From NCBI GenBank assembly GCA_047967505.1, contig CM106538.1: 64,000 nt of DNA. One strand, written 5' to 3'. The notes below the pieces were generated by a model that saw only the letters and a list, made by a program, of their open reading frames with translations, ran no database searches and was not told the origin of the DNA. The translations under genes were made by a program, and so were the position numbers. Source of the stretch: Dipteris shenzhenensis. Lineage: Eukaryota. Positions 537-46,628 of this stretch are shown here, piece after piece; position 1 is the stretch's first letter, and each line of letters begins with the position of its first letter.

Positions 537-540
537 AATT

Positions 541-7463: not shown

Positions 7464-7499
7464 TTTTTAAAATTTGTATTCTTTGAAATTTTATTATAG

Positions 7500-11053: not shown

Positions 11054-12082
11054 TTCAATTCTTATGAGTTGTAAGTAAATTAGTTTTTGAAAATATAAAT
11101 TTTATCTTTTTTAAAATGAGAAGGGGAAGGGAGAGAGAGAGAAGGGGGGGGCCACTGCCACGGCAGCGAGAGAGAATGGGGGGGGAGAGAGAGAGAAAGG
11201 GGTGGGAGGATGGGAGTGGGAGAGGGAGTGGGAATGGGGAAGGTGAAAGAATGGACGTGGGCATGGGAGTGAGAATGGGGAAGGTGGGGTGGGAGGATGG
11301 GGGCGGCAGCGAGAGAGAAGGGGGGGGAGAGAAGGGGGGGAGAGAGAGAGAAAGGGGTGTGAGTTTAAAAAAGATAAAATAGAAATTTTATCTTTTTTAA
11401 ACTCACAACCTTAGTGTATTAAAAAGAATAATGGAAAATATATTATTTTTTTCTTTTAATTCGCAACCTAAGGATATTAAAAAGAACAATGGAAAAGAAA
11501 TTATTTCTTGCTTTTCTTCGCTTCGACGGTTGGTGTAGTCTAGATTAGCATAGATTAGTTTGTCCTTAGAGGAGAGAACTCCAAAAAAACCAATCAAAGC
11601 CATGCTCAAAATTTCCCGACTAGTTCCTAATCGGAGTCAGTCCATTCGTTCACATTCGGTTTCACAGTCACAACAACCCTACCATTTAAGCAACGATTAA
11701 GGTTTTTAAACTTTCAAGATGATTGAAAGTTGTATCAGTGGACATGACAGATTAGACTTATATCAGTTGCGGGAGTTGACAGAGCATTTTGCACTTATAT
11801 ATGACAGACTTCAAATTTGTATTCAGAGATCATTGTAAATCCTTATTTTTTTTCACATTTATGCTCTAAGCCTTGTAAAGCCTTTTAGGCTATTCCCAAA
11901 GCATTTATGCTCTAAGCCTTGTAAAGCCTTTTAGGCTATTCCCAAAGCATGAAATTGATACTTATATGATTGGGAAGAATAAAAACTTGAGGTGTATTAA
12001 TGGGACTCATTGTACTTTTGATTTTTCAAAGTAATTGTAGTTTGTCAAAGTACTTAAAATTTGTGTTGTGCTTGAATACAGG

Positions 12083-12614
12083 ATGGATCTTGAGGCTACA
12101 GCATTTGTCAATGGTATGACACTGAAATACAATGGAAGAATTTATGCCTCACAAACTGGACAGTTGTTGACACAACAAAGAAAGCATGGTTCTTGGTCTT
12201 AAGTAAAGGAAATCTCATTCTAGTGATGAAAAAGAGAGAGTTGGAGAAAGATGAGTGCACATCAAATGTATCTTTCTCAAAGAGCAATTTGATTCAAGGG
12301 GGCACCTTAGTAGGAATAAAAATTGAAAAAGACAGCCGTACAATGATGATTTACACAAAGTCAAGAATGAGCAACAGATTGTTTCTTCTTTCTAAGAAAG
12401 ATGCAATGCACTTTGTGATGCCGCCGCCAAAAGCACCTAGATTTCCTGAATTGGTTCCTGCATTGGAGATCCTTCAACATGTGTGGGAGGAATTTCCCAT
12501 TGAGGAAGCAAGAAAAATGCAGTCAAAGATTATCCTTGAATACTTTCAGGGTGTCATCCAACAAGGTTCAACTTCATTGGAGGGACCTAAGGTGCAAGAA
12601 TCCACACATGAGAA
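12083..12614 (+). pseudogene. 5' fragment of the cargo gene in copy A
   Basis: MDLEATAFVNG...LQHVWEEFPIEEARKMQSK...STHE matches 36909-36368. It has a 10-bp deletion near 12148 relative to copy B and is truncated by copia. Confidence 0.85.
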
Positions 12615-18235: not shown

Positions 18236-18713
18236 TTGTTCGTGGTAAGGAGCTCAAGAAAGCAAACCAAGTTCGCAGTGTCCTGGTAAGAGGGACAAGT
18301 GTTGTTTTCCTTTTTCGAGTTTGGGAGCAAATCTCTGTAGGTAGCACAGCCGGAAGTGCAAGAGTGCACTGTCTCAGATTGAGACGCCCTTCGCGGTGTG
18401 GCAAGAGGACTTTATTTTTCTGATTCGAGGTCATTTCGGGGCCCGTTTTGGAGGCGGATGTTCTCCGCAGGCACTCAGAAAAAGGCCCTGTTTTTGCTGT
18501 GCGACCACTACTCGGCTAGTCGATGAAAAGCTACCACAGAAATTGCATCATATGCCTGTGTGCAGAGATTTTTGGAGTTGCAGATTCATGCTTGTTGCCT
18601 GTTGATGCAAAATCGTCACTAGGAAGTGACTGTGTGGTAAAATACCACTTTCGTCAGTTTTGCAGATCTGCCCGCGTGAGGCAAAAGCTGTGTTTTTGCA
18701 GTGACAAAATATT

Positions 18714-21700: not shown

Positions 21701-23225
21701 AGAAATGGATGCCTTGGATGCTAATGCTACATGGGAATTGGTGCCTTTGCCTAAAGGCAAGAATGCAATTGGCTGTAAGTGGGTTTATAAGATCAAGCAC
21801 AATGCAGATGGTTCTGTGAATAGATACAAGGCAAGATTAGTTGTCAAGGGGTATGCACAGACATATGGCATTGATTATGAAGAAACTTTCAGCCCGGTTG
21901 CAAGGATGGCAACCGTAAGAGCAGCCATTGCTATGGCTACATCAAAGGGATGGTCTTTACATCAGATGGATGTAAAGAATGCCTTCTTGCATGGTGATTT
22001 GCAAGAAGAGGTCTTTATGGAGCAGCCAGCAGGTTATGTTCATGCTATTCATCCTGAGTTTGTTTGCAGGTTGAAGAAAGCCTTGTATGGCTTGAAGCAA
22101 GCACCTAGAGCATGGTCTAACAAGATAGGACAGTATCTTGTCACTATTGTCTTTCAGATTTCCAAGGTAGATTTCTCACTCTATGTGAGAAAAACAGAGA
22201 AAGGGATTATGCTGCTTGTCATTTATGTTGATGATTTGATCATCACAGGTGATAGTGATGAAGATATCCTTCATGTGAAAATGCTATTGAAGCAGAAGTT
22301 TGAGATGAAGGATTTGGGAGAGCTGCGTTATTTCTTGGGCATTGAGGTGATTAGATCACCAAGTGGGATACAGCTCTTGCAGAGGCAGTATGGATTGGAC
22401 ATGCTGTCCAAATATGGGATGACAGGCTGCAAGCCTATTTCAGTTCCTTTGGAGCAGAATGTGAAGCTGAGCGCAGATGCAGGTGAGCTTCTGGAAGACC
22501 CTACTATGTACAGACGCATAGTAGGAAGTTTGATTTACATGACTATTACCAGGCCAGATTTGAGCTATGCTGTTGGGTTGGTAAGTCAGTTTATGCAGGC
22601 TCCAAGGAAACCGCATTTGGATGCGGCTAGACGCATACTCAGGTATGTGAAGTCCACATTACAATATGGACTATTTTATGAGGCTGGGGTTCAGATACAG
22701 TTGCATGGATACACTGATGCTGATTGGGCTGGTAGCATTTCTGATAGACGATCTACCAGTGGATATGTGTTCTCTTTTGGGAGTGCTACAGTCACTTGGA
22801 GCAGCAAGAAACAGCCTACAGTTGCCTTGTCGAGCACAGAGGCTGAGTACAGGGGTGCAGCAATGGCTGCATGTGAGGTAGCTTGGTTGCATAAGCTACT
22901 CTATGATATGCATCAGTCTACAGATGGGCCAGTTGTCATTTATTGTGACAACATGAGCAGCATACACTTGGCAAAGAACCCAGTCTTTCATGCTAGAACA
23001 AAGCACATTGAGGTGCATTATCACTATGTGTGGGAGAAGGTTTTACTAGGTCTTATTGATCTAGTTTATGTCAGCACAGAGGATCAGGTAGCTGACATAT
23101 TCACGAAAGCATTGGGCGCAGAGAAGCTGCGCAAGTTCAGAGACCTGCTTGGTGTGCAGGAATTGGGATTGAGCTCGAGGGGGAGTGTTGAGATATCGAG
23201 CTCCACTCGCGATATGCCAGGGTGA
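18714..23225 (+). pseudogene. gag-pol: Copia gag-pol polyprotein (GAG-PR-IN-RT-RH) with in-frame stops and an insertion
   Basis: ORF pieces 18714-18947, 18972-19436, 19566-21161 and 21387-23225 carry CYYCGKMGHMAKDC, DSGAS, the integrase core, YVDD and DADWA. Confidence 0.93.
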
Positions 23226-24639
23226 CCGTTTTGTATTTATGTCACCGACTTGTTAGCTAGAGATGAGGTTGGTACACTGCCCACGAATAATAGCTGGATG
23301 AAAGCTATCCTTATCTACTCTAGTTTGTGGCTCAGTTAGTATGCCACCTTAGTTAGTTGAGTTTGGTTTGAGACCCACGTATAGGGTTCTTCTATTTTCT
23401 TTGTACTAGAGTTCTTTTGGCTTTCACAACTAAGAAGAGGAAAACTGTTTTCAGCCTCCACCTTTGTGTGTATTCCCCCATTGTGATTGTGAGAAAGCCT
23501 CAAGTGAGACTCCTTCCCTCTCTCCCACTATCTTCACACACTAGTCATTGAAAGACTGGGTGATGAAGCGTGTGAGGGGGTGCACCTCCAAGATTTCGTA
23601 GAGGTGGAGGTGGAAGCCCTCGAGTTGGTGCTTCCAATGGTGCATAAGTGCACTATCTGGTAGTTCTTGGAACAACTGCAAGTCGGCACCACTATACATT
23701 TTTCGGGCGGGGCGGAGGGAGGAGCTTGCAAAGCCTCGTCATCTTCAATGTGCATGGGTTACTCCTCTGCTATGCCCATTGGCATTGTATCATCAGCCAT
23801 CTAGACAAAATTGGCTGCCTTGAGCAGTGTGTTGAGAGCCTCTTCAAGAAGGTCCGCGACCGGAGCCATAGAGGAGATGGATGGGGAGGTCCCGTGCTAT
23901 GCGGTGGTTGGTGTTAGAGGCATTGGAAGAATATTTGGGCAGAGTGGTGTGAGGAAGGGGAGGTGGGAGAGGTTGGGTGGATTGTTGGGTGGGCTGGGCT
24001 AGATCCAGAGGGTGTGGTTGTGGGATTTCAGTAGTTGGGGTGGTAGAATTAAATATTGAAATGGCTTCTTGGCCTTCCTCCTCAGCTAGTTCCTCATGAT
24101 ATGCTACATGTATTGTTTCAAAATTGCTCACCAAGGACTCAAGTGAGTCTTGGAGGGCTTGTAGCACTGGGTTTAAGAGGATTATAATGTCGAGGGGTTG
24201 TAGGTGGTGGACTGGTACGCCACAAGATGCCCTTGAGATTGTATTGTGGAGACTCGACCATAGGTATGCATCCAATTAATGTCGGCTTGCAGACTTTTGG
24301 GGGTGAAGACCCACGGGATGAGCTCCTTGGGCTTTGATAATTGCATCATATCATTGTCCACAGGATAAGTATTGGACTCTATGATGATGATGCGGCACCA
24401 AGCTTGGAAATTGAGTAGAATGGGATGGGCGGCAAGAGTTTGGAGGTCAGAGGGGCAGAGAAGAGAGAGACTAGACCACCTCCATGGTGACACCTCATCC
24501 GTGCCAGTTGGGCACCCTTGCCTCTCCACAGGCACAGTCCTTCATCTGCATATGACCCATAGTGCCACATCACCAGTGTGACACCTCATCCATTTGGGAC
24601 CCCTTCTTGGACAAAGTTTGGCCTATCCTTCCGGGAGCC

Positions 24640-27164
24640 ATATCTTTTGATCCAGGAGGAATTTCATAGAGCTGTAAAAAGGAAAAAAGATCGCCAGATT
24701 GTGCTCTACATGATGAGCACCTTAGATATTCCATTTGACATTTTGACAAGCTAGAATCATTAAAACCTCATCATTGAAACCACCTTTTGATCCTTTGCAA
24801 TGCATCTAGCGATTAAAATGAATCAAGCTAAAAATCATTTGCTGCATTTATCGTATCGATGTGTATTCTAGCTATAGAATAGCATACCATAGTAGAGATC
24901 CAACTCCACCAAGCCAAGTTAGCCACCATTGCCACATTACCCAATTAGTTCCCACCAATGTTGGTCCATGCGGTTCTATCATCGGTGTACACATTCTACA
25001 CTGACACCAGCTCAGCCCCTTGGCATTTGGCACTTCATCACCCTAGTGTGATACTTGGTAGAGTTGTCCTCCTTGAATTCAAGATTGTTGCACCTTTGCA
25101 TGCACATATGCCACCCATGTATAGTCACGCTTGTTGACTATTTTTTGGCATTGGTTCCTACACATACCTCAACCTTGTATAGCCTCTTAGCTACTCCCGA
25201 CACATAGTTGTCATCATTACATTATAGGCTTAATCCTTGGCACATTGCAGTTCTCACATGACTTGGTTTTGACCGTTTAGCATAAGCCCCCAAGTGGAAG
25301 CTCTTTTATAGTGTTCTCATGGTTAGACACTCTTGCTAGTACACGGGTAAGCCTCTTGCACAAAGCACCAGACCGCCTCCAACATGGAGTTATTCTCATC
25401 ACACAGCTAATGATACACCTTTCATGACTCTGAATGAGATCTGTGAGTGGAAAGAGAACCTTCTTCAATCATTTATTGCCACAAGGTATGTACCAATGCA
25501 TGATGCCGACTCGAGCCTCATTGGTCTTGAGCAATCAGCCCACAGTTTATGATCATGCACATGTCTCGGTAAGCCCTTAGCACGAGGCACATTTGACAGT
25601 AAGTCCTTAGTACGAGGCATTCCCATCGACATTATCTCAGTCTGATTCTCAGCTACTACTACATGATGCACAGCCATCACATTTATGCATGGATCCGACT
25701 CCATGTACTATCACATCACATGCAGATACTCAGCAGGAGTTCAATTATGATCATGCAATTCTTCAATAAGTAAGTCCTTAGTACGAGGCACTCACATCTT
25801 CTGCCGCATGCAGAGATACATGCCATAGTGCATTCTACTCTTTTTGTGATTCCATTCTAGCATCCATCACTGATGCTGACATAGAGCATACCATGGCCTC
25901 AGTTCCCTTCAATAGTACAAATCAGCATATCAATCTTCAAGATGTACCAGCATCGGCTCAGTTATGCCGCATGCACGACCCATGGATCTAGTGATCACCA
26001 CCACCTCTTTCGATCAGTAGATCATTCCTCAGCATGAGGATACCTATGCATTAGTGTGGTCCTGCCCCACTGAAGTGGACATTATTAGGTTCTCAGCCAT
26101 AGCACAACCTGGGGAGACTCAATGTTTCATCATGCACTTATGGCTGTCGTATACAATCCATACTTGATGCACATCAGTGGTTGGATCCACGACTATAGAT
26201 CAGTCCCCCTACACTAGTATTTGGCACCTCATATGCCTCAGGATTGCCATACCTTGTCATTTGTATGAGCTTCTTCATCAGCAGAGTAGTGTATCATACT
26301 TGCACCTTCGGACCTACATTGGCATCCACTAAATCACTTTGTCCACATCGACTATGCGGTCTTCTTTGACCCTACATCATTCAATACAGATTATCCTTCT
26401 ACTACAGCATACCTTCAACATTGTTGCCAGTTCTTTTGGGGTGGTGACACTCTCCTATGTCACAACCTACCGGATGCCATAGCTACATCAACTAGCCTCA
26501 CATCCAAATGCCTCTTCTAAGGAGTAGCTGCACATTCCACGGTGACTTATGACATGTTCAACCTTGACATGTTCAGCACACAGCCATACAGACAATTCTC
26601 CATGCAATCATCTTTCGATTGATCAGTCTTTGATCCAAGAGGACTATATTCTTTGCAAATTTCCTTCCTCTTCCCTTCAGCCTATCTTTTGGGTTTTATT
26701 CCCAAAGGCGAAGGATGACCCACAACTTAAGAGGGGGAAATGCACATTGTGTATAGGATCGTAAGTTTTACTCATTGTACATGCTTCTGCTACGTAGTCA
26801 CTATATGCACATACTACTCTGATTTCTTTTTAGCTTTCTTATTTAGTTTTGGATGCTATCATATGCACCAAACGAAATCCACAAACAAGTCTTGTACATG
26901 CACCCTCTACTTACCCAATGCAATTTAAGAGGGGGTGTTAAAGATAGTATAAATCGCACTATCCACATAGGGCATGGGGGCAAACCCTAACCCTAAGGGG
27001 TAATTTACACTATCCACATAGGGCATAGGGGCAAACCCTAACCCTAACCCTAAGGGGTTCACATGTATATCTTCATGTTTATTGTCAATACACTTAGTGT
27101 ACATGTATCTATATCGTGTGCACTCCTCTCTCTCTCCCTCTTTAACTTCCACTATCACTGAACA
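24640..27164 (+). mobile_element. Probable degenerate LTR-retrotransposon 3' region ending in PPT plus a ~229-bp LTR (26936-27164)
   Basis: AAGAGGGGG directly followed by TGTTAAAG; candidate end ...CTGAACA after a CT-rich tract; repeated CTTTGATCCA(G/A)GAGGA motifs upstream. No partner LTR in the window, so boundaries are uncertain. Confidence 0.45.
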
Positions 27165-29919: not shown

Positions 29920-30920
29920 GCAAGATGAAAGGAGTATGCTTGAGAAGAGGAGGTAAGGCTACGGGCAAGATGGAAGGAGCAAGCTTGAGGAGAGGAGTAA
30001 GGTAAGAAGAGTAAAGTGGAAGAAGTGTGGAGAGGAGTAAGGTAAGAAGAGTAAAGTGGAAGAAGTTTTTGCTGCGGGTGAGATATAGAAGACGAACTAG
30101 GTGAGGAAGGTAACGAGAGTGAGGAAAGATATAGAAGGAGGTGAGGAAGGTAACGAGAGTGAGGAAGGTAACTAGAGGAGGTAAGGCAAGATGAAAGGAG
30201 TATGCTTGAGAAGAGGAGGCAAGGCTGCGGGCAAGATGGAAGGAGCAAGCTTGAGGAGAGGAAGGAGCAAGCTTGAGGAGAGGAGTAAGGTAAGAAGAGC
30301 AAAGTGGAAGAAGTGTTTGCTGCAGGTGAGATATAGAAGATGAACGACTACTAGGGGATTTATAGAACTACAGATTCATAATGTGGGATGAAAGATTTAG
30401 AATAAAGAATTGGTAGAGGCTGAGATGACTAGATGCAAGACTGTAATGCGAGACATTATAAAATAAAATGATGGGATGCAAGACCGTAATGGGAGACATT
30501 TGAGACATGTAAGACAGTGATAGTACATTGAAATCTATAAAATAAAATGATGGAACACAAGAATGATATAATTAATAGAATCTCATCATGAGATATTCTT
30601 TTAATATAATATAAGTTAGTAATTATTAGAATCTCATCATGAGATATTCTTTTAATATAATATAAGTTAGACTTGCTGATGCAAGACCGTAATGCGAGAC
30701 ATGTGAGATGATAGATTTTGAGTACATTGAAATCTATAAAATAAAGTGATGGAACATAAGAATGATATAATTATTAGATTCTCAACATAAGATATTTATT
30801 GTACATAATAAATGATAGATTTTGAGTACATTGAAATCTATAAAATAAAGTCATGGAACATAAGAATGATATAATTATTAGATTCTCATCATAAGATATT
30901 TATTGTACATAATAAATTAG
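29920..30920. repeat. Short tandem and dispersed duplications (GAG/AAG-rich units, then AT-rich units)
   Basis: Repeated GGAGAGGAGTAAGGTAAGAAGAG, GAGGAAGGTAACGAGAGT, TAGAATCTCATCATGAGATATTC and GTACATTGAAATCTATAAAATAAA blocks. Confidence 0.75.
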
Positions 30921-31076
30921 ACTTTCAAAAAAGTAAAACCTAATGTATTGTAATGAATAAATATCATAAAATATCCTAATGTATTGCAACATTTAACATA
31001 AGTTTAAAAAACACTATCATTAATCAATACAAACAAGATAAAAATCTTCAAGGACTCATGTTTCTTTCTACATGTT

Positions 31077-34000
31077 TTACAACTGAATAGAGTCTGATGA
31101 GTCCTCTTGAGGCTGTGATTCTCTAAGAGTACATTGAGTCTCTACTTGTGTGGATGGTGTACATTGAGATTCTACTTCTGGTGCAATTGGGATAGACTTA
31201 ATCTCTTCCTCCTTTACAAGATGTGATGTTGTAGATGCACATTGAGTCTCCACTTCTTGTGTAGGGAGAATGCATTGAGTCTCTAATTCAAGTGTAGACT
31301 GTAATGCTTCTACTTGAGGCTGTGATACAGAAGGAGACTGAATTGTCTCTTCTTTTTCTTTGGCTCCCTCAGGTTCTTCATTGAGTCCATCATGTTGTTT
31401 CCCAATGGTAGCAGTTAGATAGTGAACAGTCTTAGCCACAAAATCTTGTAGCTCGAGCTTGGTATATGCTTCTATTGAGACATGTTCAAAAATTTCATTG
31501 AGATACAACATGAAGTTGTAGGCAATTCTCCACCCACTACTAAACATGTCTTTCTGCTCCACTGCGAGGCGTGTCTGGAAATTTGGTTGGTCTTGATGCT
31601 CCCTGATTTTCATAATCGCAGAAACTAACTTGTTTGCAAACCTGTCCATCATGACATATGACAAAGTGAATTTGTGTAGTAAATAGTAAGATGCATGTTC
31701 ATAATGATATGATAAAAGAACACTTACCTGAACACCCCGTGAAAGCCTGTAAATGAGTTGACAAACCAACAATGGTTGTCATCAAGATCCCATACTATCA
31801 GGCTCCAATGTGAACTACATCACCAATAAAGAGCGATAAGATTTATCACAATATTAAGTATTAATTGACACAATATTATAAATAAGAGAGTAAAAGAAAG
31901 ATTGAGACCATACTTACTTCTCATAGTATGGCATAAAGACAACTAGTATGCCATCCAAGTCTAAAGGTTGTAGAATTGAACAAACATCATCTACTGTCTT
32001 CTTGGTATCACTAAGTACAGCTGAAAGAAGAGAATCGAGCATACAGACGTGATTCTGTACTGATCTAGGAAAGTGAGATATAACCGTACTACTGCAGCAA
32101 TAAATAAACAAATGTTAGAAGCAGATTGAATCAAATGATTGAAGTATCAAGCCAAGAGATGTTCATATCAAACCTGAGGATGGCCATCATGACTTTGTCA
32201 TTAGCCTCTTTCAAAGGGTCAGAGAGGATTGTAACTTCCTCACTACCAAAAGTCAAAACACGAGGTTGCTTGCTAATGATGACCCTAACCTCAGAAGAGC
32301 TCCCCATTTCGTCCAATATAGCGGTTACATTAGGACAACTTATGGGTGTAGCAACCAATGTTTCCTCTGAATGCTCCACCACGTTATTAATAAATGCCTT
32401 AATGATAGATGACATAAATGCATATAGATGCAAGTCTGTATATGTCGACAATGAGGTTTCATCGCCTCTCAAATTAAAAATTTGAGCAAGGAGCAGTTAT
32501 ATCTGACTCTCCACCCACAACTGTGGTCATCATTCTGCTTCGCTGCAGGGCATGTTACATACTCTATTTGATCTTCCAAGTCACCCTCCATTTGCATAAG
32601 TGCATCTATAGCACCTACCAACTTTCGAGCAGATCTACACATCAAAATAGAAAACATAAATGAATGTGCGCATTGCATAGGATGCATCTCATTGACATAA
32701 TTATGACACAAGTAGGTTATACTTACTCTGACACACTGCCATGGATAGATGCTATTGAATTGACAAAGAAGCATTGCTTGGCTAAGATGTCCACAATTAC
32801 CAAGCTCCAATGCAAGCTGCATTATCAATTAAGAATAATTATTATTTGATATAATCCTCCACAATGTAAGAGATAAGCTAGGTAGGGATTGATACTCACT
32901 CCTCGTGATATGCAGTAAAGATAACTCGCGCCGCAGTCAAATCAATAGGTTGCAACCACTTAAAAACATCATCTATGGTCTTCTGCTTATTGCTAAGTAC
33001 ACTAGAAACAAGAGGATCGACCATATATGCACATCTTTGTATATATAAGGGAAGCTGTTGTAAAACCATACTGCAATAAAAAGAAAAGAATATTAGTTCA
33101 TTTGATCTAATGGAAATACAAAAGCATAAAGTCAGTAAAAAGTTTGTGTCAAACCTGAGGATGGCTATTATGACCTTGTCATTAACCTCTTTCTTGAAGT
33201 TTACGAGGATTGAAATGTCCTATTCATCGAATCGAAAAGTAAGAGGTTGTTCTCGAACTTGAAACCTAACTTGAAATGACTTCTCCATTTGCTGCAAGGT
33301 ATGATTATTTCTAGAGTCATCCGATGGATAGCCAGAGTAGCTTTGCTTTCTTGAGATGAGCTTTCTATATTCTCTACTCCAGCTATGCCCTCCTCATCCT
33401 CCTCCTCTCCCTTCTCCTATAAAAGGATAAAATAATTATGAGATTCAAAATTTTAAATTAATTATAAATTTAAAAAGACCTTTAAATGAATAAAGAAAAT
33501 TAAACATAAGTTTTCATACCTCTACATATCTTCGTGGTCTTTTTATGTAACCTTCAGAGGCAAGGTCAGTGTCATATCCATCTTCTTCTGCTTCCTTGCT
33601 ATCGCTGGTGTCCTCACTATTATATCCAGAGCTTTGATCATTTTCATCATCTTTCTTGCTCTCATCATACATGATCATCTCTATGTCAGCATCCTCTTCA
33701 TGTGAGATCGGACCTTTCTTATCAAACTTTATTGTGAGAGAAGCCACGGTATCAAGGTATTCCAAGCAAGCAAGGCTCTCAATAATATTTACATTGTGTC
33801 CTTTTCTAATAAGAGCTTCAAACAGATGTCCCATTCGACACAATGTGACTTCCCATCCGGACGGTAGCAAAAATTCCATCATACTAATTAAAAGATCAGC
33901 ACTTTTTGCTGGCCTTTCATAGTGATTTGCGTTGCGATGGAGGGGACTTGGATCTTCATGCTCTTCCAGCAGTAGTTGCAATCTCTTTGCATTCCCTCTT

Positions 34001-36909
34001 ATATTGTTTTGTAAGGAGTGATCATTGTAAGGGCTCTTCATGCACAAGAAAAAGGTTTCTAGACTCTGTATCTTGAGACCGCATTCTCTCTTGTCCCTTT
34101 TTCTTGAGTATATGCCATTGTAAATCTTAAGCTCATTGCCATATTGTTTTTCTAGGGTAGCAGACATTTGTTCCTTGTCATCTTTATCAGCAAATATGAC
34201 TATATTGCATTGTCCCACTCTACCAATGGTGGTATGTAATATTCTGTCAAGGAGTTGACGAATGTCATCCGGTGATATTTCATAGACAAAGAAAAGCTGA
34301 GGTCTCTCCCAAGCAGTGTCGTCGGACAAAAATTCACTCAATGAAACTCCCTTGCACTCAACACTCTTTCCAGACTCTGAAATGATTTCATGTATGAAAA
34401 AAAAGCCCTTGTTCAAAGTTTTTTCTTTTCTGAGAGTGTGCTTATTGATGACTTTTTGTGCATATGCATACACATTTTCCGGAATGTCACTTCTCATAGA
34501 GGGAGTAATTTCAGATCCATCATCTTCTACCTTCACCCATTTATGCGCCCAAGCCTTCTGTTTAGCTGACGGTAAAGCTGATGCCATCTGCCTCACAATG
34601 TTATGATCAATTTTACATTGGCTAATTGGAATATTTTTTTCTCCCAATAAATATTCAATTGCACTCTTTACTGCATCACGCTTGACCTGTTGGATGATGC
34701 AATCTTCCATGCAATGATCTTTATCCTTTTTGCCAAAAAACCATTCTTTGGACATTAATTTCTCTGCAGCAAGACTTGCGTATTTGTCTGGTAGGTTTCT
34801 TAAAGGCCTCCACTTTTGAGCTGTCATCTCTTTTTTCTCAATCTTCTTTGCCTTCTCTTTAATCAATGATGGAGCCTCATATGTGACATCTCCTTTCTCA
34901 CATGCAAGACACACGTCTTTGATCTGATGAAAAACTTCATCACTACGGAAAAGTATGCTTGTGTAGTCTTGATACCTATCCCTTACTGTCTTAAAGCTTG
35001 TAATCACCTCTGCTCTTTCCTGCTTTCCCCTTGGTACAATGGCACTCAAGCATGTGTAGAAGTCAACAAGATTATCCGCTTCCACTTTAGTTGCAGTTCT
35101 TTTGAGAGTGGTCAAAGGAGAATTAAAAGTTTTCCATATGGTCCTAGCTTTGAGCAACATCTCTGAAGTGGAGGTGATTTTTCGTAGTGCATAAATGTCA
35201 TGATTAAGTCTTTCCGACTCAATCAAATATTTTTTCTCGTTCTTGAAGATACAAATGCATGCAGAATAGTAGTGAAATTGAGGCACACTCGCGAAGGTTT
35301 GATAAGTAATTTCTCCTTTCTTGTATGCATCTCTAGAGTGCTCATTACAAGCATAGGCATAGTGCTGACCATCTATTGCCTCAAATGTACAATGAGCTAA
35401 GAAATTTCTCTTGGCATCCCTTATATGTCGTTCTGGATCATTCACTGAACTCTGTCCTTCTTGAAGTTAGGGAACTTGTTTTCCGAGGAACTTAGTGAAT
35501 TGCATCTCAAAATCCATAGGCTGAGAGAAATTGATGGATTGACTATAATCTCCCATGACTGGCCAAAATGTTCTTGGACGGAGTACCAAATTAGAAAAAA
35601 CTGGTTTTTTTCCATCAATCAAAGCCTGAAAAATCTTTTCAGCATAGATTGTATCTAAGGTCCTGCTATTGGTGAAGACACTTGCTTTGACCACTGTTGA
35701 AGCATGTATAACTTGAGTCTTCTGGCCCCATATATATCCTGGATCCTCATCTGTCACAGCCTCATTCAAGCGAAGATTTAGATTCTTCATTGATAACATT
35801 TCTGCTTCTAGATCTGACTCCATTTCAAGACCCTCCGCATCCTCTTCATGTTCTTCCTCTTCTCTTCTTTGCACTTTCTTTGTATATGAACGACCTCTTT
35901 TTCCAGTTATAGGACTTGGAACTGTAGCTCGTGAAGTACTTGCCTTTTGCATTTGACGTCGATATTTATTTTTTAGGGGCTCAATGTGAACTGCTTTAGA
36001 TCGCCCTACTTCTTCTTCTATTGCCTCAACTTCAGGTATACTTAAGGGCTTCACTTGTTCTGTTATTCCATCAACTTCATGAGTTACACCATCTAAGTGA
36101 GTAATACCATGAACAAGAGATGTGTGTGCATGTCCTGTCTTATCTGATGCATGTCGTGTCTCACTCAATTCAATTTCTGTCTGAGATGCATGTGCATGTC
36201 CGGTCTCCACCAATTCAATTCCTGTCTCAGATGTAGATCCCTTGTAAGCATCCACGTGTACAAGACCCTCATCCATTGCTACAATGTGTTCTGTCTCATC
36301 CACTCCACTTCCTCTCTCATTTGTATTACCATGAACCAGGTCTACATGGCGTGTCTCATCACTTCCTTTCTCATGTGTGGATTCTTGCACCTTAGGTCCC
36401 TCCAATGAAGTTGAACCTTGTTCGATGACACCCTGAAAGTATTCAAGGATAATCTTTGACTGCATTTTTCTTGCTTCCTCAATGGGAAATTCCTCTCACA
36501 CATGTTGAAGAATCTCCAATGCAGGAACCAATTCAGGAAATCTAGGTGCTTTTGGCGGCGGCATCACAAAGTGCATTGCATCTTTCTTAGAAAGAAGAAA
36601 CGATCTGTTGCTCATTCTTGACTTTGTGTAAATCATCATTGTACTGCTGTCTTTTTCAATTTTTATTCCTACTAAGGTGCCCCCTTGAATCAAATTGCTC
36701 TTTGAGAAAGATACATTTGATGCCCACTCATCTTTCTCCAACTCTCTCTTTGTCATCACTAGAATGAGATTTCCTTTACTTAAGACCAAGAACCATGCTT
36801 TCTTTGTTGTGTCAACAACTGTCCAGTTTGTGAAGTCCTTTGGGGCATAAATTCTTCCATTGTATTTCAGTGTCATACCATTGACAAATGCTGTAGCCTC
36901 AAGATCCAT
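31077..36909 (-). pseudogene. Spliced cargo gene, about 1700 codons: ParB/Srx-like domain, degenerate N4/N6-MTase-like region, two Ulp1/C48 protease domains
   Basis: ORFs 36496-36924, 35467-36465 and 33514-35445 are one frame separated by single stops (copy A has TGG at the first). Seven GT-AG introns follow (33519-33417, 33154-33071, 32899-32817, 32726-32635, 32173-32092, 31917-31815, 31727-31642), joining exons with HWSLVIVD, QNDDHSCG, HWSLIVWD and QKDMFSSG. Two frameshifts (about 33330 and 32490) and one further stop are required. Confidence 0.8.
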
Positions 36910-38679
36910 CCTGTATTCAAGCACAACACAAATTTTAAGTACTTTGACAAACTACAATTACTTTGAAATATCAAAAGTACAATGAGTCCCATTAATACAC
37001 CTCAAGTTTTTATTCTTCCCAATCGTATAAGTATCAATTTCATGCTTTGGGAATAGCCTCAAAGGCTTTACAAGGCTTAGAGCATAAATGCTTTGGGAAT
37101 AGCCTAAAAGGCTTTACAAGGCTTAGAGCATAAATGTGAAAAAAAATAAGGATTTACAATGATCTCTGAATACAAATTTGAAGTCTGTCATATATAAGTG
37201 CAAAATGCTCTGTCAACTCCCGCAACTGATATAAGTGTAAAATGCTCTGTCAACTTCCACAACTGTAATCTGTCATGTCCACTGATACAACTTTCAATCA
37301 TCTTGAAAGTTTAAAAACCTTAATCGTTGCTTAAATGGTAGGGTTGTTGTGACTGTGAAACCGAATGTGAACGAATGGACTGACTCCGATTAGGAACTAG
37401 TCGGGAAATAGTCGGGAAATTTTGAGCATGGCTTTGATTGGTTTTTTTGGAGTTCTCTCCTCTAAGGACAAACTAATCTATGCTAATCTAGACTACACCA
37501 ACCGTCGAAACGAAGAAAAGCAAGAAATAATTTCTTTTCCATTGTTCTTTTTAATATCCTTAGGTTGCGAATTAAAAGCAAAAAATAATCTATTTTCCAT
37601 TATTCTTTTTAATACACTAAGGTTGTGAGTTTAAAAAAGATAAAATTTATATTTTCAAAAACTAATTTACTTACAACTCATAAGAATTGAACATTCACAT
37701 TAATAAGAAGTTAAAATCTTAATAAATTTGAATTTAAATAATAAAAACTATAAAGTAGTTTAACTTAAAGTTTATGAAAAAATAACGTAAAATAAAGAAA
37801 ATAAGACTTAAAATTAAAAATTTAATATTTACCTAGAAGAATATATTAATTCTCCCTAAAAAGAAATAAATTAAAGTAATAATAACGAATGTAAGTTAAA
37901 CTACTTTTAAAATTTTAATTTAAAATGTAATAAAATTAAAATTATACTTTTTATATTCCAAAACAAAATGCATTATAGTCTAAATTAAACTAGTAAATTG
38001 AAAATGAAAGTGAAACTCATTTTAAATTCAAAAACAAAGAAAAATTTAAAATTCAAGTTTCTACAAGTTTTGCTTTTAGCATACATTTGTCTTTTCACAT
38101 CCACGCGTTTGTCTTTTCAAACACAAGGTTGTCTTTTATCACAATTTTCAAGTTTTCACATGTTTATCTTTTCAAACACAAGGATTCATAGTTTAAAAAA
38201 AGGCGGGAAATTTGAAATTCTAGTTTCCACACGTTTCTCTTTTCAAACACCAAGGTTTATAGTTTTGTTTGTTTAAGTTTCGACTAAATCACACACCAAT
38301 CTCCTCTAATATGCCTCATTGATCGTAGCTCCCAAATTCTTCCATCAAAACATCTCTCCTTTATCTCTTCTTGATCGTCGCCCACTCATTTTTTCTCCTC
38401 ATTGGTAAGATTTTCTATCTCGATCGTACTTTCTCTTGTGCCCTTCCTCTCTAAATTTTCATCAAACACCAAGGTTTATAGTTTTGTTTGTTTAAGTTTC
38501 GACTAAATCACACACCAATCTCCTCTCATATGCCTCATTGATCGTAGCTCCTAAATTCTTCCATCAAAACATCTCTCCTTTATCTTTTCTCAATCGTCGC
38601 CCACTCATTTCTCCTCTTCATTGGTAAGATTTTCTATCTTGATCGTACTTTCTCTTGTGTCCTCCCTCTCTAAATTTTC

Positions 38680-38957
38680 ATCTCTCGTCCATCTCTCTCA
38701 CTCTTCTCTCTCTCTCTTTCCTCTCCGCTCTAGTCTACGTTTCCTCTCATCTTAGTCTACTCTCTCCCCTCCTCTTCATTTCCCCTCTCTCTCTCTCTCT
38801 CCCACTCTCTCCTCACCTTTTCTCTCTCTCTCACTTGCGCTCCCCACTCTCTCTCTCACTTGCTGCGGCCTCCCCCCTCTCTCTCTCTCCCCTCCCCTCT
38901 CTCTCTCTCCCCCCCTCTCTCCCTCTCGCTGCCGCAGCAGCGGCCTCCCCCCCTCTC

Positions 38958-38988
<31 letters not shown>

Positions 38989-40890
38989 CCCCCTCCCTCT
39001 CTTTCGCTGCCGCGGCAGCGGCCCCCCCTCTCTCTCTCTCTCTCCCCCCTCTCTCTCGCTACCACGCCTCCCCCCCTTCTCTCTCTCTCCTCCCCTTCTC
39101 TCTTGCTACCACGGGAGCGGCCCCCCCTCTCTCTCTCTCCCTCCCCCTCTCTCTCGCTGCCGCGCCCCCCCTTCTCTCTCCCCCCCCTCCTCTCTCGCTA
39201 CCGCGGCAGCGGCCCCCCCTCCCCTTCTCTCTCTGCCGCCCCCCTCCTCTCCCCCCCTTCTCTCTCTCTCCCCCCTTCTCTCTCACTGCCACGGCAGTGG
39301 CCCCCCCCCTTCTCTCTCTCTCCCTCCCCCTCTCTCTCGCTGCCACGCCCCCCTCCTCTCTCTCTCCCCCCCTCCCCCCCCTCCTCTCCCCCCCCCTTCT
39401 CTCTCTCTCCCCCCCCTTCTCTCTCGTTGCCGCGGCAGCGGCCCCCCCTTCTCTCTCTCTCCCTCCCCCTCTCTCTCGTTGCCGCGCCCCCCACCTCTCT
39501 CTCTCCCCCCCTCCTCTCTCACAGCCGCGGCAGCGGCCCCCTCTCTCTCTCTCCCCTCCCCTCCCCTCCCTCTCTCCCCCCCCTCCCTCTCCCCCCCTCT
39601 CTCCGCTGCCGCGACAGCGGCCTCCCCCCCTCTCTCTCTCTCCTCCCCCCTTTCTCTCCCCCCCTCCTCTCTCGCTGCCGTGGCAGCGGCCCCCCCTCCT
39701 CTCTCTCTCTCCCTCCCCCTCTCTCTCGCTGCCGCATCCCCCCCCTTCTCTCTCTCCCTCCCCTCCTCTCTCGCTGCCGCGGCAGCGGCCCCCCCTCTCT
39801 CTCTCCCCTCCCCTCCCCTCCCTCTCCCCCCTCTCTCTCTCTCCCCCCCTCTCTCTCGCTGCCCCCCCTTCTCTCTCTCCCCCCCCTCCTCTCTCGCTGC
39901 CGCGGCAGCGGCCCCCCCTCTCTCTCTCTCTCCCTCCCCTCTGTCTCACTGCCGCGCCCCCCTTCTCTCTCTCCCCCCCTCCTCTCTCGTTGCCGCGGCA
40001 GCCCCCCCTTCTCTCTCTCTCCCCCCCCTCCTCTCTCGCTGCTGCGACAGCGGCCCCCCCTCTCTCTCCCTCTCCCCCCCCTCCCTCCACTGCCACGGTA
40101 GCGGCCTCCCCCCCCTCTCTCTCTCTCCCCCCCCCTCTCTCTCCCCCCCTCTCTCGCGTTGCCACGCCCCCCCTTCTCTCTCTCCCCCCCTCTCCTCTTT
40201 CGTTGCCGTGGCAGCGGCCCCCCCCTTCTCTCCCTCTCCCCCCCCCCTCCTCTCTCGCTGCCGCGGCAGCTGCACCCCCTCTCTCTCTCTCCCTCCCCCT
40301 CTCTCTCGCTGCCGTGCCCCCTCCCCTTCTCTCTCCCCCCCTCCTCTCTCGCTGTCGCGGCAGCGGCCCTCCCCTCTCTCTCTCCCCTCCCCTCCCCTCC
40401 CTCTCCCCCCCCTCTCTCCGCTGCCGCGGCAGCGGCCTCCCCCCCCTTTCTCTCGTTGCCCCCCCTTCTCTCTCTCCCCCCTCTCCTCCTCTCTCGCTGC
40501 CGCGGCAGCGGCCCCCCCCTCTCTCTCTCTCCCTCCCCCTCTCTCTCGCTGCCGCGCCCCCCCTCCTCTCTGGCTGCCGCCTCTCTCTCTCCCCTCCCCT
40601 CCCTCCCCCCCCCTCCCTCTCCTCCCCTCTCTCCGCTGCCGCGGTAGCGGCCTCCCCCCCTCTCTCTCTCTCCCCCCCCTCGCGGCTTCCCCCCTCTCTC
40701 CCCTCTCTTCCCCCCCCCTCCCCCTTCTCTCCCCTCTCCCTTTCTCTCCCCTCTCTTTCCCCCTCCCTTCTCTCCTCTCTCTCCCTCTCTCTTTCTCTCT
40801 CTCTCTTTTGCTGCCGAGGCAGCAAGACTCTCTCTCTTATAATCTCTCTCTAAAAGTCTTTCCTTCACTTTTCTCTCTCTAAGTTCTCTC
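38680..40890 (-). repeat. CT/C-rich array with the 16-bp palindrome (copy B counterpart of 7500-9900)
   Basis: (CT)n and C-runs with recurring CGCTGCCGCGGCAGCGGC. Confidence 0.93.
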
Positions 40891-41159
40891 TCTATAATAA
40901 AATTTCAAAGAATACAAATTTTAAAAAAAGTACCTGGAAAAAAGTTGAAATCTATGCTTGTGCTTTGTTGTGCTTGCTTTTGCTCTTCCTCCTCTTTTTG
41001 CTTCTCCTCTTGCTCTTCCTTGTTGAAATGAGAGAAACAATGAGAGAAGGAGAGTATATATAAGAAAAACTAGGGTTTTAAGTGCTTCTCTCTCTTGGTC
41101 CTTCTATAACATTATCTCCTCTCCCATTGGCCTCTCTATTAGATTATCTTCTCTCTCTC

Positions 41160-42085
41160 TCCCGCCCACTCCCGTCCTCCCACCCCATTCCCACTCCCAC
41201 CCCCATCCTCCCACCCCACCTCCCCCATTCTCACTCCCACGCCCACGCCCATTCTTTCACCTTCCCCATTCCCACTCCCTCTCCCACTCCCATCCTCCCA
41301 CTCCACCCCTCCCACTCCCACCCTCACCCCCACCTCCCCCATTCCCACTCCCACTCCCACTCCCACTCCCATTCTCCCACCCACTCCCATCCTCCCACCT
41401 CCACCTCTCACTCCCACTCCCATCCTCCCACCCCCACCCCTCCCCCCCCATTCCCACTCCCATTCCCACTCCCACTCCCATTCTCCCACCCTTATCCTCC
41501 CACCTCACCCCTCCCACTCCCATCCTCCCACTCCCTCTCCCACTCCCACTCCCATTTTCCCACCCCCCCACCTCCCCCATTCCCACTCCCTCTCCCACTC
41601 CCACTCCCATTTTCCCACCCCCCCCACCTCCCCCATTCCCACTCCCTCCCCCATCCTCCCACCCCACCCCTCCCACTTCCACCCCCACCTCCCCCATTCC
41701 CACTCCCATCCTCCCACCTCACCCCTCCCACTTCCACCCCCACCTCCCCCATTCCCACTCCCTCTCCCACTCCCATCCTCCCACTCCCACTCCCCACCCC
41801 TCCCACTCCCACTCCCATCCTCCCACCCTCACTCCACCCCCACCTCCCCCATTCCCACTCCCTCTCCCACTCCCACTCCCATTCTCCCACCCCCACCCCC
41901 ACCTCCCCCATTCCCACTCCCTCTCCCACTCCCACTCCCATCCTCCCACCCCCACCCCCACCCCCACCCCCACCGCCCCCATTCCCACTCCCTCTCCCAC
42001 TCTCCCTTTCTCCCACTACCACCCTCCCACACTCCCTTTCTCCACTTTCCCACTCTCCCTTTCTCCCACTACCACCCTCCCAACT
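41160..42085 (-). repeat. (ACTCCC)n array, G-rich on the minus strand (copy B)
   Basis: Reverse-complement counterpart of 6273-7240. Confidence 0.93.
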
Positions 42086-42159
42086 ATCAATTCCACTATT
42101 ACTTATGAATTCTAATTAAAACTATTACTTAAATAAATGATATTACTTGAAAACACTCA

Positions 42160-43140
42160 TAGGATTTAAGGTTTAGGATTTCGTGGTTTGGGTTTAGGAT
42201 TTGGGGTTTGGTGAGTTAAGGTTTAGGGTTTAGGGTTTAGGGTTTGTGAGTAAGGAATTAGGGTTTGTGAGTTAGGGTTAGGGTTTAGGGTTTGTAAGTT
42301 AGGGTTTAGGGTTTGGTGGTTTGGATTTAGGATTTGGGGGTAGGGTTTAGGGTTTAAGATTTGGGAGTTAGGGTTTAGGGTTAGGGTTTAGAGTTTGGTG
42401 GTTTGGGTTTAGGGGGTAGGGTTTAGGGTTTAGGGTTTAGGGGTTAGGGTTTAGGATTTAGGGTTTAGGGTTTGGGGGTTAGGGTTTAGGGTTTAGGGTT
42501 TGGGGGTTAGGGTTTAGGGTTTGGGAGTTAGAGTTTAAGGTTTAGGGTTTAGGGTTTGGGGTTTAGGGTTTAGGGTTTAGGGTTTAGGGTTTGGGAGTTA
42601 GGGATTAGGGTTTGGGAGTTAGGGTTTAGGGTTTGGGGGTTAGGGTTTAGAGTTTAGGGTTTGGGGGTTAGGGTTTAGGGTTTAGGGTTTAGGGTTTAGG
42701 GTTTAGGAGTTAGGGTTTAGGGTTTAGGGTTTGGGAGTTAGGGTTTAGGGTTTGGGGGTTAGGGTGGGTTTGGGGGTTAGGGTTAAGGGTTTAGGGTTTA
42801 GGGTTTAGGAGTTAGGGTTTAGGGTTTAGGGTTTAGGGTTTGGGAGTTAGGGTTTAGGGTTTGGGAATTAGGGTTTAGGGTTTGGGGGTTAGAATTTAGG
42901 GTTTAGGGTTTAGGGTTTGGGAGTTAGGGTTTGGGGTCTGGGGGTTAGGGTTTAGGGTTTAGGGTTTGGGGGTTAGGGTTTAGGGTTTAGGGTTTGGGAG
43001 TTAGGGTTTAGGGCTTAGGGTTTAGGGTTGTTATTGGTTAGGGTTGAGGGTTGAGGGTTCAGGGTTTAGGGTTGTTTTGGTTTACGGTTTAGGGTTTAGG
43101 GTTTAGGGTTGTTATTGGTTTACGGTTGTTATTGGTTAGT
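42160..43140 (+). repeat. Interstitial telomeric (TTTAGGG)n array, internal to copy B
   Basis: About 1 kb of GGGTTTA with TTTGGGAGTTAGGG and TTTGGGGGTTAGGG variants. Confidence 0.97.
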
Positions 43141-43265
43141 GTGTAATTAAATTTTCAAACAAGTTCTAGATTTTTAAATCATTAATAAAGTAGATTATTG
43201 AGAAGAGACTAATGTTCTTTATAATGGTTGTTACAGCTTGTTTGCAAAGGAAACTCACAAAGGAG

Positions 43266-45931: not shown

Positions 45932-46598
45932 TAACACCATTCAAATATCGAGAAAGAGTGAAGGTGGTGGTGGTTGTCAGATGAGAGTGAATGAAGATGG
46001 CACCCAAGCGACAAGTGACGACAAAAAGGACATTCTGAACAAGCAAATGTTTGGATCGCTCATTTCTGTGATCATGATAGAAAAGGACATTCAAACAAGC
46101 AAATGTTTGGATCGCCCATTTGTACTAAACTCATTGCAAAGGAAAAATTAAATTATTGAAAAGGCCACAGGAGATCCTTTGTACAAAGACTCATCCAGAG
46201 CAATATTTGTTGTAAAACTTATGACATGATAATGTAAAATTGCAAGCATAGCTATTGCTATTTTTTGGAGTACAAAAGAGGCTTCCATCATGTCTCATGT
46301 CTATATAAACCTTTTAATTTCGTTGTGAATCCTCAATAGCATGGTTTTTCATGGATTTAAACTAATAACTCGGATTTTTTATTTTAAGAATATGATTCTT
46401 ATAAACAAGAAATACAAATTTAGGATTTAATAGTAGTTTTTGCATTATTTGTACAACATTGTAGAGAGATATTTTGAAATGTCTTATGTGAAAATGATAG
46501 TGCCAGAAAGTAAACTTTTGATTCTCGAATGACAGTTTCATAAAGTAAACTTTTCATTTGGGAAGGATTTTAAGGAATAGTCCAAAAGTAGACATATG

Positions 46599-46624
46599 AG
46601 TCCAAAATTAATGAAATAAGTGTT
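46599..46624 (-). repeat. Right TIR of copy B
   Basis: AGTCCAAAATTAATGAAATAAGTGTT followed by AATC. Confidence 0.92.
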
Positions 46625-46628
46625 AATC

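Follow-up and report, generated by a model that had tools for sequence, protein, structure and literature searches.

Ulp1-type domains are among the accessory domains most often captured by plant DNA transposons, and their role is still unknown according to the passages of PMC13317346 and PMC12973397 that treat them. In the corresponding parts of PMC12973397, PMC8978399, and PMC13317346, Peptidase_C48 recurs among the accessory domains of TIR transposons in plants. The ULP-like genes Kaonashi and KIU belong to non-TIR MULEs (VANDAL relatives) of Arabidopsis, and similar Ulp1 cargo occurs in MULEs of grapevine, melon, and rice (sections of PMC13317346 on these elements). In angiosperm CACTA elements, the ORF2 proteins carry Transposase_24 and then Peptidase_C48 (PMC8978399, in its account of ORF2). 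Protease cargo of the Ulp1 type in plant transposons is already known. One literature match for paired or tandem Ulp1 or Peptidase_C48 domains, PMC10779208, concerns tandem paralogous fungal genes and not a two-domain protein.

The window analyzed here is a stretch of 64,000 nucleotides of Dipteris shenzhenensis (contig CM106538.1). The locus 31077..36951, on the minus strand, is in our assessment probably a copy, decayed and non-coding, of a plant-type gene that exists in many copies and is itself probably associated with transposons. A preliminary description of the same DNA had proposed a hidden spliced product; that the locus encodes it is not supported, as this is a pseudogene with five disabling lesions. 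Better-preserved copies would have eight exons and seven short GT-AG introns and would yield about 1,700 residues, in the order of an N-terminal part of ~1,145 residues (of no known family), an acidic linker, and two tandem Ulp1/C48-like cysteine-protease units, D1 and D2, presumably born of an old internal duplication. The window copy can make none of this product, with the N-terminal part broken by two nonsense codons, D1 by a 1-nt deficit and a TAG, and D2 uncoupled by a 7-nt deficit.

The anatomy of the gene can be read directly from the window (all coordinates below are on the minus strand unless stated). The splicing model proposed earlier holds for the donor, the acceptors, and the shared intron positions. 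The 650-aa stop-to-stop frame (33514-35466) does end within a GAG/GTATGA donor, and the "643/650-aa ORF" amounts to a single exon of a gene that is longer and broken. Exon 1 (33520..36951), the long upstream frame of 1145 codons, would encode an uncharacterised protein and is broken by a TGA and a TAA. Downstream from intron 1 (33417..33519, 103 nt, GTATGA...TTATAG, GC 0.15), a frame opens exactly at the acceptor. Exon 2 (33155..33416) holds the acidic linker and the N-terminal part of D1 (…VNDKVIIAIL), with a 1-nt deficit and an in-frame TAG. D1 continues in exon 3 (32900..33070; exon B of the unit, ...MVDPL...VIFTAYHE), exon 4 (32727..32816; the His-box exon, D-LHWSLVIVD...FVNS), and the beginning of exon 5 (32174..32634), where the D1 Cys box (KQNDDHSCGW), a 7-nt deficit, a linker, and the N-terminal part of D2 (…ANDKVMMAIL) are found. 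The junctions A/B, B/C, and C/D of D1 correspond to introns 2 (33071..33154, 84 nt), 3 (32817..32899, 83 nt), and 4 (32635..32726, 92 nt), each in phase 2. In D2, the same three junctions are occupied by intron 5 (32089..32173, 85 nt, or 82 nt via the upstream AG of a NAGNAG acceptor), intron 6 (31815..31917, 103 nt), and intron 7 (31642..31727, 86 nt), again all in phase 2. These separate exon 6 (31918..32088; D2 exon B, ...MLDSL...VVFMPYYE), exon 7 (31728..31814; the D2 His-box exon, N-SHWSLIVWD...FVNS), and exon 8 (31077..31641), which has Ser at the Cys-box position (EQKDMFSSGW), C-terminal helices, and an acidic tail with VE(T/S)QC repeats, ending at the stop 31077-79. The seven GT-AG introns are as announced. 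Their GC content is 0.27 (vs. 0.41 in the exons), and in six of them stops occur in two or all of the three frames. Near the NAGNAG acceptor, 3 nt at 32087 are absent from the contigs of other copies.

The exons had also been described as phase-consistent, which they are not: the eight joined exons amount to 3754 nt, not a multiple of 3. With the proposed splice, the frame is lost after ...EIIIP, the first stop comes at 33203-33201, and 44 stops follow downstream. The D1 exons are mutually in frame but contain the in-frame TAG, and their frame is offset by 1 nt from the 5′ part of exon 2 and by 7 nt from the D2 chain. Only the D2 chain, from 32496 to 31080, stays open, for 381 codons and across three introns.

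All five lesions are matched by readings in other copies, taken from the in-window paralog and from DNA contigs of two studies (X1 and X2; the contigs with restoring variants are ~98-99% alike). At the TGA in the exon 1 frame (36496-98), the left-arm paralog has W. At the TAA (35467-69), contigs of both X1 and X2 have G at 35468, giving TCA. The other three sites are read through in X1 contigs, with one extra base after 33307 at the 1-nt deficit of exon 2 (33307/08), C at 33222 turning the TAG of exon 2 (33220-22) into GAG, as in D2, and seven extra bases after 32483 at the deficit of exon 5 that splits the D1 and D2 frames (32483/84), whereby the two frames are joined exactly. An X2 contig has instead nine extra bases after 32483 and one after 32428; the stretch between these two sites may still be closed. 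By coordinate arithmetic, each contig change restores exactly the frame of the splicing model. Since the contigs from other studies and the paralog read through each lesion site, the window copy is taken as the pseudogene of a multi-copy family. The four restoring variants are spread over at least three different contigs and, therefore, no intact single copy is demonstrated. An alternative genetic code for the in-frame stops is ruled out, as TAA, TAG, and TGA all occur in frame, also in the neighboring copia ORFs. Contig joints at 31649 to 31740, 32539 to 33153, 32841 to 33149, and 34024 to 34695 were considered as signs of processed copies; they do not fall at introns and are taken as diverged or rearranged copies.

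The quoted peptide strings of both units are present in the window, and the three intron positions are indeed identical in D1 and D2, in phase as well. With the matches of every exon pair (tblastn within the window: E 4.7e-07 for A, 6e-12 for B, 3e-06 for C, and 1e-03 to 2e-05 for D), this bears out the proposed genomic duplication of the protease-like unit. With the unit exons as tblastn queries, no third unit was found in the window. D1 and D2 share ~43% amino-acid identity. Over 128 codons their dN/dS is 0.56, and conservation is highest at the second codon position; nucleotide identities of 0.59-0.65 in exons vs. 0.57-0.63 in introns are not discriminating.

The catalytic signature of C48 in the Ulp1 literature is a His-Asp-Cys triad with an oxyanion Gln, in canonical order. 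D1 keeps His (LHW), Gln, and Cys (KQNDDHSCGW), with Asn for Asp (FVNS). In D2, His (SHW) and Gln are present, with Asn for Asp and Ser for Cys (EQKDMFSSGW). The earlier residue calls were right for D1 and for the Ser of D2, but the Asn for Asp of D2 had been missed. The full triad is found in neither unit, and the canonical order and spacing are found in both. Because His, Gln, and Cys are kept, D1 could, in intact copies, still be a Ubl isopeptidase (with Asn for the triad Asp). With Ser for Cys and Asn for Asp, D2 has most likely lost its catalytic activity, or the greater part of it.

The Ulp1/C48 identity stands as the best available family assignment, and the matches that point to it are at the level of exons and below threshold. 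For PF02902, the Pfam gathering cut-off is 20.7 bits, and the pieces scored were unspliced (nine ORF and eight exon pieces). PF02902 is the top family for two of the eight exon pieces, both His-box exons, at corresponding HMM positions and both below the gathering score: exon 4 of D1 (16.5 bits, E 0.0076, positions 96-120 of 217) and exon 7 of D2 (11 bits, E 0.38, positions 95-119). The other six exon pieces gave no C48 match at E<=10, and none of the nine ORF pieces gave one at E<=1. In the PDB, the exon-C profile matched 12 sequences at E<=10. Nine are SENP2 or Chlamydia Dub1/Dub2 (ChlaDUB), and the other three (two annotated "membrane thiol protease" and one "conserved membrane protein") align at the HW motif too; in the 6gzu alignment, the query Asn lies opposite the Asp of FDS. 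With the exon-D profile, one of eight matches is yeast Ulp2 (5lnb_B, E 0.052), in which the Q..D..[SC]G box aligns with Q.N..DCG; the remaining seven are designed TIM-barrel proteins. No C48 chains were among the PDB profile matches of exon B (0/2), exon A (0/4), or the D1 Cys-box exon alone (0/2). For D2 exon 8, a word-indexed homolog search (longer lengths) gave no match, and the nearest named clusters by ESM features (Streptophyta) contain PF02902 in 22% and 15% of their members, a lead that may point to C48.

In exon 1, the conserved core is ...FL..C.FEAIDGQH..YAC.... Library relatives of the N-terminal part number 11, none with C48 or another Pfam family, and the part itself has no Pfam match at E<=5. 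Its PDB profile (12 aligned relatives) matched only acidic low-complexity stretches. For the 650-aa ORF, a word-indexed homolog search at near and longer lengths gave no match; its ESM matches are Streptophyta clusters of 813 aa (0.95) and 1673 aa (0.93), suggesting that the gene is plant-type. An AlphaFold2 model of residues 425-800, from a 10-row alignment, is poor (mean pLDDT 49, pTM 0.31). With it, Foldseek gave no match at E<=0.001, and the ParB-family chains Spo0J (1vz0) and Noc (7nfu) appeared only at E 1.3-2.2. With such a model and such E values, to read the DGQH motif as ParB-like is conjecture.

Many diverged copies of the gene exist (29 contig pieces in X1 and 47 in X2, two studies, with identities from >99% to <90%). 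In the window itself, an inverted paralogous copy (11376..12614, plus strand) has 95% identity to the 5′ region of the gene (36368-37655) and ends at 12614/12615, the start of a copia-type element; the 5′ part of the gene lies within a 12-kb inverted duplication. The surroundings of the gene are transposon-rich and similarly decayed. We did not observe a convincing inverted repeat pair flanking the 29-38 kb region around the gene (the best is 37 nt at 70% identity). MULE, CACTA (Transposase_21/24), and KDZ/Zisupton families gave no Pfam match in the gene or in the neighboring 1260-aa ORF. That ORF matches DUF7869 only, with no PDB relative found and the name DUF7869 absent from the literature searched. 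The VANC-type domain is annotated as DUF1985, which was not found in the gene by Pfam. From copy number and neighborhood, the gene is probably transposon cargo.

How far other explanations account for these observations varies. To the idea that an intact spliced protein, with active and pseudo-active Ulp1 domains, is encoded by this very locus we give almost no credence, and for the sequence as assembled it is already refuted. The description of the splice sites and domain strings is accurate, and the D2 chain taken alone is open, but the joined exons run out of frame (first stop 33203-01), a TAG lies inside D1, a 7-nt offset precedes D2, and at the two upstream stops other copies or the paralog have open codons. 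The protease-like exons might belong to a separate downstream gene or transcript, the 1,145-codon ORF truly ending at the TGA 33514-16 and the GAG/GTATGA being coincidental. Such a gene could draw on Met codons in exon 2 (…HRMTLE…, …QQMEK…), and library relatives of the N-terminal part come without a protease domain. Yet it appears improbable, as the frame opens exactly at the acceptor of intron 1 (36 codons, no start being needed), the +1 variant of X1 joins precisely that frame to D1, and intron 1, with stops in every frame, is the lowest of the introns in GC; the 1673-aa ESM cluster, a lead only, is close to the expected fused length.

The pattern HW...NS...Q..D..[CS]GW could, in turn, be a chance motif or belong to another fold, with the units as repeats of another module and not of C48. 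The curated threshold is never reached, exons A and B and the D1 exon D alone are without a C48 match, and the triad Asp is missing from both units. We nevertheless hold this to be quite improbable: independent exons lead to one family, colinearly and at the catalytic motifs, by three methods (Pfam, PDB profiles, and ESM features). The size of the unit, ~230 residues, also fits the C48 catalytic domain, with which such a size is compatible. On another view, which dispenses with transposon cargo altogether, the copies form a dispersed family of host genes or a cluster of segmentally duplicated pseudogenes and arose via the large inverted and tandem duplications of the region. The 12-kb inverted duplication that includes the 5′ part of the gene speaks for it, as do the TIRs that were not found and the transposase domain absent from the gene. 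The many contig pieces with graded identity in two studies, the transposon-rich and similarly decayed surroundings, and the recurrence of Peptidase_C48 in plant TIR transposons (passages of PMC12973397, PMC8978399, and PMC13317346 cited above) speak against it, and we consider it unlikely while taking it seriously. As our best explanation we retain the decayed copy of a multi-copy, probably transposon-associated gene. Its anatomy, its lesions, and the existence of other copies are observed, and the C48 fold, a fused transcript, mobility, and any activity are inferred.

The gene family seems to have kept two tandem Ulp1-type domains over a long time, one of them without its nucleophile. Such a family would offer a natural experiment as to which of the two, binding or cleavage of SUMO-like modifiers, the element needs. 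Because the window copy is dead, it cannot settle this question; what it offers is a template on which to base the gene model and to look for intact copies. A bolder proposal, which we regard as a long shot, is that intact members would encode a previously undescribed accessory protein of plant mobile elements. In it, a Pfam-less module of ~1,100 residues (core ...EP[VI]DGQH..AC..., possibly with a ParB/Srx-like DNA- or nucleotide-binding fold) would be coupled to a long-maintained Ulp1-like pair, a working His-Asn-Cys protease and a conserved Ser-for-Cys pseudo-protease that would bind, and not cleave, SUMO or another Ubl. Between them, the two would target Ubl-dependent silencing and reverse it on the chromatin of the element itself.

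Among known systems, the Kaonashi/KIU proteins, as characterized in the sections of PMC13317346 devoted to them, resemble the window gene in that a repeated element encodes a large protein, not a transposase, that ends in an Ulp1-type domain; anti-silencing as the suspected role is counted as a further likeness. They have one unit, whereas two tandem units occur here, the second with Ser for Cys. The N-terminal part of the window gene is without any Pfam match, the VANC-type domain included, and MULE transposase and termini are not seen at the gene. With the CACTA ORF2 proteins (the account in PMC8978399), the gene has in common that Peptidase_C48 is accessory and C-terminal, in a second transposon protein that is not the catalytic one. 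However, Transposase_24, Transposase_21, DUF4216, and DUF4218 were not found in the window gene, nor were CACTA termini, and the Peptidase_C48-like domain is tandemly duplicated. Ulp1, Ulp2, SENP, and ChlaDUB (PDB 5lnb, 1tgz, 2io0, and 5hag, among others) have the same motifs in the same order and with the same spacing: an HW His box, then a small-residue-Ser motif at the place of the third triad residue, then the Q-x-[ND]-x-x-x-[CS]-G box. Here, in contrast to them, both units have Asn for the triad Asp and D2 has Ser for Cys, the exon-level similarity is below family thresholds, and the gene is multi-copy and decayed, not a conserved host gene. Engineered SENP mutants with the catalytic Cys changed to Ser or Ala serve as substrate traps. 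D2 has the same kind of nucleophile substitution, with His, Trp, and Gln kept; unlike in those mutants, the substitution is natural and in cis with a Cys-bearing unit, and the binding by D2 is putative.

The gene lies on the minus strand at 31077-36951. Its upstream part follows one frame from 36951 to 33517, which single stops (TGA at 36496-98 and TAA at 35467-69, minus strand) divide into three successive stop-to-stop ORFs with 151, 342, and 650 codons. As proposed in the preliminary description, the final TGA (33514-16) falls within a splice donor, GAG/GTATGA, and seven GT-AG introns of the suggested sizes (82-103 bp) are found on this strand: intron 1 at 33519-33417 (103 nt), intron 2 at 33154-33071 (84 nt), intron 3 at 32899-32817 (83 nt), intron 4 at 32726-32635 (92 nt), intron 5 at 32173-32089 (85 nt), intron 6 at 31917-31815 (103 nt), and intron 7 at 31727-31642 (86 nt). 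The GC content of the introns is 0.27 (636 nt) versus 0.41 in exons 2-8 (1807 nt), and many stop codons occur within them; on these features, the predicted splicing appears good. Intron 5 has a tandem NAGNAG acceptor (GCAGTAG, 32088-32093, minus strand) and measures 82 nt with the upstream AG. In contigs of other copies, 3 nt are absent at 32087, by this acceptor, which points to a one-codon variation of the gene family at the junction.

The protease-like part consists of two homologous four-exon units, D1 and D2 (exons A-D). The DNA alignment of D1 (33300-32470) with D2 (32470-31400) extends through exons and introns, and the three splice junctions occupy identical alignment columns, as had been claimed, and are all in phase 2. 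The peptides reported for D1 (VNDKVIIAIL, MVDPL, VIFTAYHE-D-LHWSLVIVD, FVNS, and KQNDDHSCGW) and for D2 (ANDKVMMAIL, MLDSL, VVFMPYYE-N-SHWSLIVWD, FVNS, and EQKDMFSSGW) are all present. The exon pairs share 40-48% protein identity, with tblastn E-values within the window of 4.7e-07 (A), 6e-12 (B), 3e-06 (C), and 1e-03 to 2e-05 (D); the same search detected no third unit. Over 128 ungapped codons (NG86), dN is 0.44 and dS 0.79, a ratio of 0.56 that is blurred by saturation and later decay, and the second codon position is the most conserved. Together, this ratio and the second-position conservation indicate that the duplication is old and has been subject to a degree of coding constraint.

The exons were described as phase-consistent and as encoding an intact hidden product. 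Neither claim holds at this locus. The eight joined exons amount to 3754 nt, which is no multiple of 3; the frame is lost past ...EIIIP, with a first stop at 33203-01 followed by 44 stops. Comparison of D1 with D2 places the frame change inside exon 2 near 33307. At 33220-22, D1 has TAG where D2 has GAG, and just past ...SCGWRVRYN, D1 is 7 nt shorter than D2, so that D1 ends at TGA 32469-71 with D2 in a different frame. Read in its own frame, the D1 chain is interrupted by exactly one stop, and the D2 chain, spanning three introns, stays open over 381 codons. The in-frame stops are not due to an alternative genetic code, because TAA, TAG, and TGA all occur in frame, in the gene as well as in neighboring copia ORFs. 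Judged from its sequence, the window copy of the gene is a pseudogene.

Other copies were found in three DNA runs of two studies, matching the gene stretch or parts of it. Contig pieces aligning to the gene at ≥85% identity number 29 in X1, 47 in X2, 8 in X3, and 4 in X4 (handles for the sequencing runs), with identities from above 99% down to below 90%. Among the 40 of 166 differences listed, T>G at 35468 turns TAA into TCA in X1 and X2 contigs, and A>C at 33222 turns TAG into GAG in an X1 contig, matching D2. X1 contigs also carry one additional base after 33307 and seven after 32483. By coordinate arithmetic, the former restores exon 2, bringing the frame that opens at the intron 1 acceptor (33416) into the D1 frame, and the latter joins the D1 frame to that of D2; the splicing model thus predicts precisely the variants seen. 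An X2 contig has nine additional bases after 32483 and one after 32428 (net +10); in the stretch from one insertion to the other, its frame may still be closed. The restoring variants are spread over at least three different contigs and so do not establish that any one copy is fully intact. At the position of TGA 36496-98, a partial inverted paralog (12094-12621) has Trp.

The Pfam and PDB profile searches scored unjoined exon or ORF pieces. In nine ORF pieces, PF02902 gave no Pfam match at E ≤ 1. With the eight exact exon pieces (E ≤ 10), PF02902 is the top family for two, both His-box exons: that of D1 (E 0.0076, 16.5 bits, HMM 96-120 of 217) and that of D2 (E 0.38, 11 bits, HMM 95-119), each below the cut-off of 20.7 bits. 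The exon C profile matches 12 PDB sequences at E ≤ 10 (0.18-0.86); nine are named SENP2 or Chlamydia Dub1/Dub2 and the other three align at the same sHW motif. In this search, FFDS of 6gzu is paired with FVNS of the query. The exon D profile matches yeast Ulp2 (5lnb_B, E 0.052, residues 196-252) across the Q..D..[SC]G box, its other seven of eight matches being designed TIM-barrel proteins. No C48 protein occurs among the PDB matches of the exon A profile (four), the exon B profile (two), or D1 exon D alone (two). As a lead only, the named clusters nearest to D2 exon 8 by ESM features (scores 0.88 and 0.87) are Streptophyta proteins with PF02902 in 22% and 15% of members. Since two independent exons point to both catalytic boxes of a single family, the boxes are correctly ordered, and the unit has the expected size, D1 and D2 are very probably related to C48 or clan CE; the family assignment itself is sub-threshold. 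The residues noted previously are as described: D1 has Asn for Asp and keeps Cys (His-Asn-Cys), and D2 has Ser in place of Cys. D2 has Asn for Asp as well, and a complete His-Asp-Cys triad is present in neither unit.

The upstream 1,145-codon part, searched as read-through with X at its two stops, contains no Pfam family. Scanned in full with HMMER, 1.84 billion representatives yielded 11 matching proteins at E ≤ 0.001 (best 5.5e-20), mostly short fragments, with no Pfam family or protease domain among them. They have in common a core ...FL..v.WEP[VI]DGQH...AC...ES.R.N...; in the window, this Pfam-less conserved core, with the motif ...EP[VI]DGQH..AC... common to the 11 unnamed proteins, lies at 34552-35679 (minus strand). 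The ESM neighbors of the 650-aa ORF are Streptophyta "hypothetical protein" clusters of 813 aa (0.95) and 1673 aa (0.93), the latter length fitting a fused product of the gene. The AlphaFold2 model of the core is poor (pLDDT 49), and fold searches gave nothing usable; in this low-confidence model, DGQH is immediately preceded by a strand and followed by a helix, which would correspond to the arrangement in ParB/Srx-type domains.

The window consists of a mosaic of repeats that have decayed. Within it, 1-12614 and 36368-46627 form an inverted duplication (81-99% identity) that takes in the first 584 coding bases of the gene and the region upstream; its arms run outward from a unique center of ∼24 kb, and the gene straddles the right inner boundary (36368). 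The left copy of the gene 5′ region is cut at 12614/12615, at the start of a copia-type element. Each arm has a DUF7869 ORF, intact and single-exon at 1319-5098 (minus strand, 1260 aa, E 1e-50) and fragmented at 43194-46000 (plus strand). The intact ORF has no other Pfam family and no PDB relative, and a literature search did not find DUF7869 by name. Each arm also contains ∼1 kb of telomere repeat of the plant type, (AACCCTA)146 at 5165-6195 and (TAGGGTT)136 at 42160-43110. These tracts abut the 5′ side of the DUF7869 ORFs, and by their orientation the intervening 37 kb is flanked as a chromosome capped at its two ends would be. Several kilobases of low complexity, G-rich at 6353-9444 (left) and C-rich at 38865-42002 (right), embed GCCGCTGCCGCGGCAGCG-like palindromic units (GC up to 0.71, GC skew about ±0.7) and may be an assembly or sequencing artefact. 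Copia-type LTR retrotransposon copies form tandem or recombined arrays at 12615-24800 and 47000-64000, with blocks in common at 13350-17332, 19555-23538, and 60747-64000, and further ones at 50376-54670 and 56472-60746. The ORFs of these copies are interrupted by single in-frame stops (TAA, TAG, and TGA all occur) but not by frameshifts, in the manner of point-mutation decay. Directly downstream from the gene stop, 104-bp tandem repeats (30475-30925, 95-98% identity) could be subterminal repeats of the gene's unit. Four short repeats of the VE(T/S)QC type lie in the C-terminal tail that the last exon contributes (31080-31300, minus strand).

With the gene copy dead, as its reading frames indicate, there is no mechanism at this locus. 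The product of the gene family is most likely a large accessory protein with a protease-like C terminus, in which D1 (His-Asn-Cys) would be one possibly active Ulp1-like isopeptidase and D2 a nucleophile-less Ulp1-like copy beside it. By analogy with engineered Cys-to-Ser SENPs, which serve as substrate traps, D2 plausibly binds a Ubl rather than cleaving it; a link of D1/D2 to silencing is a speculative idea. The earlier observation is sound, but its claim of an intact product fails here. A literature phrase search for Ulp1 or Peptidase_C48 domains in tandem or in pairs brought up no account of a protein built in this way; one match concerns tandem genes in a fungus (PMC10779208). Because neither inverted termini flanking the gene nor a transposase family linked to it was found, we infer a role as transposon cargo only from the number of copies, the pattern of decay, and precedent. 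That precedent is well documented, and Ulp1 borne by transposons is already established: Published work places Ulp1 domains in Kaonashi/VANDAL-type MULEs (PMC13317346) and Peptidase_C48 in CACTA ORF2 (PMC8978399), and presents Peptidase_C48 as a recurrent accessory domain in active TIR elements (PMC12973397).
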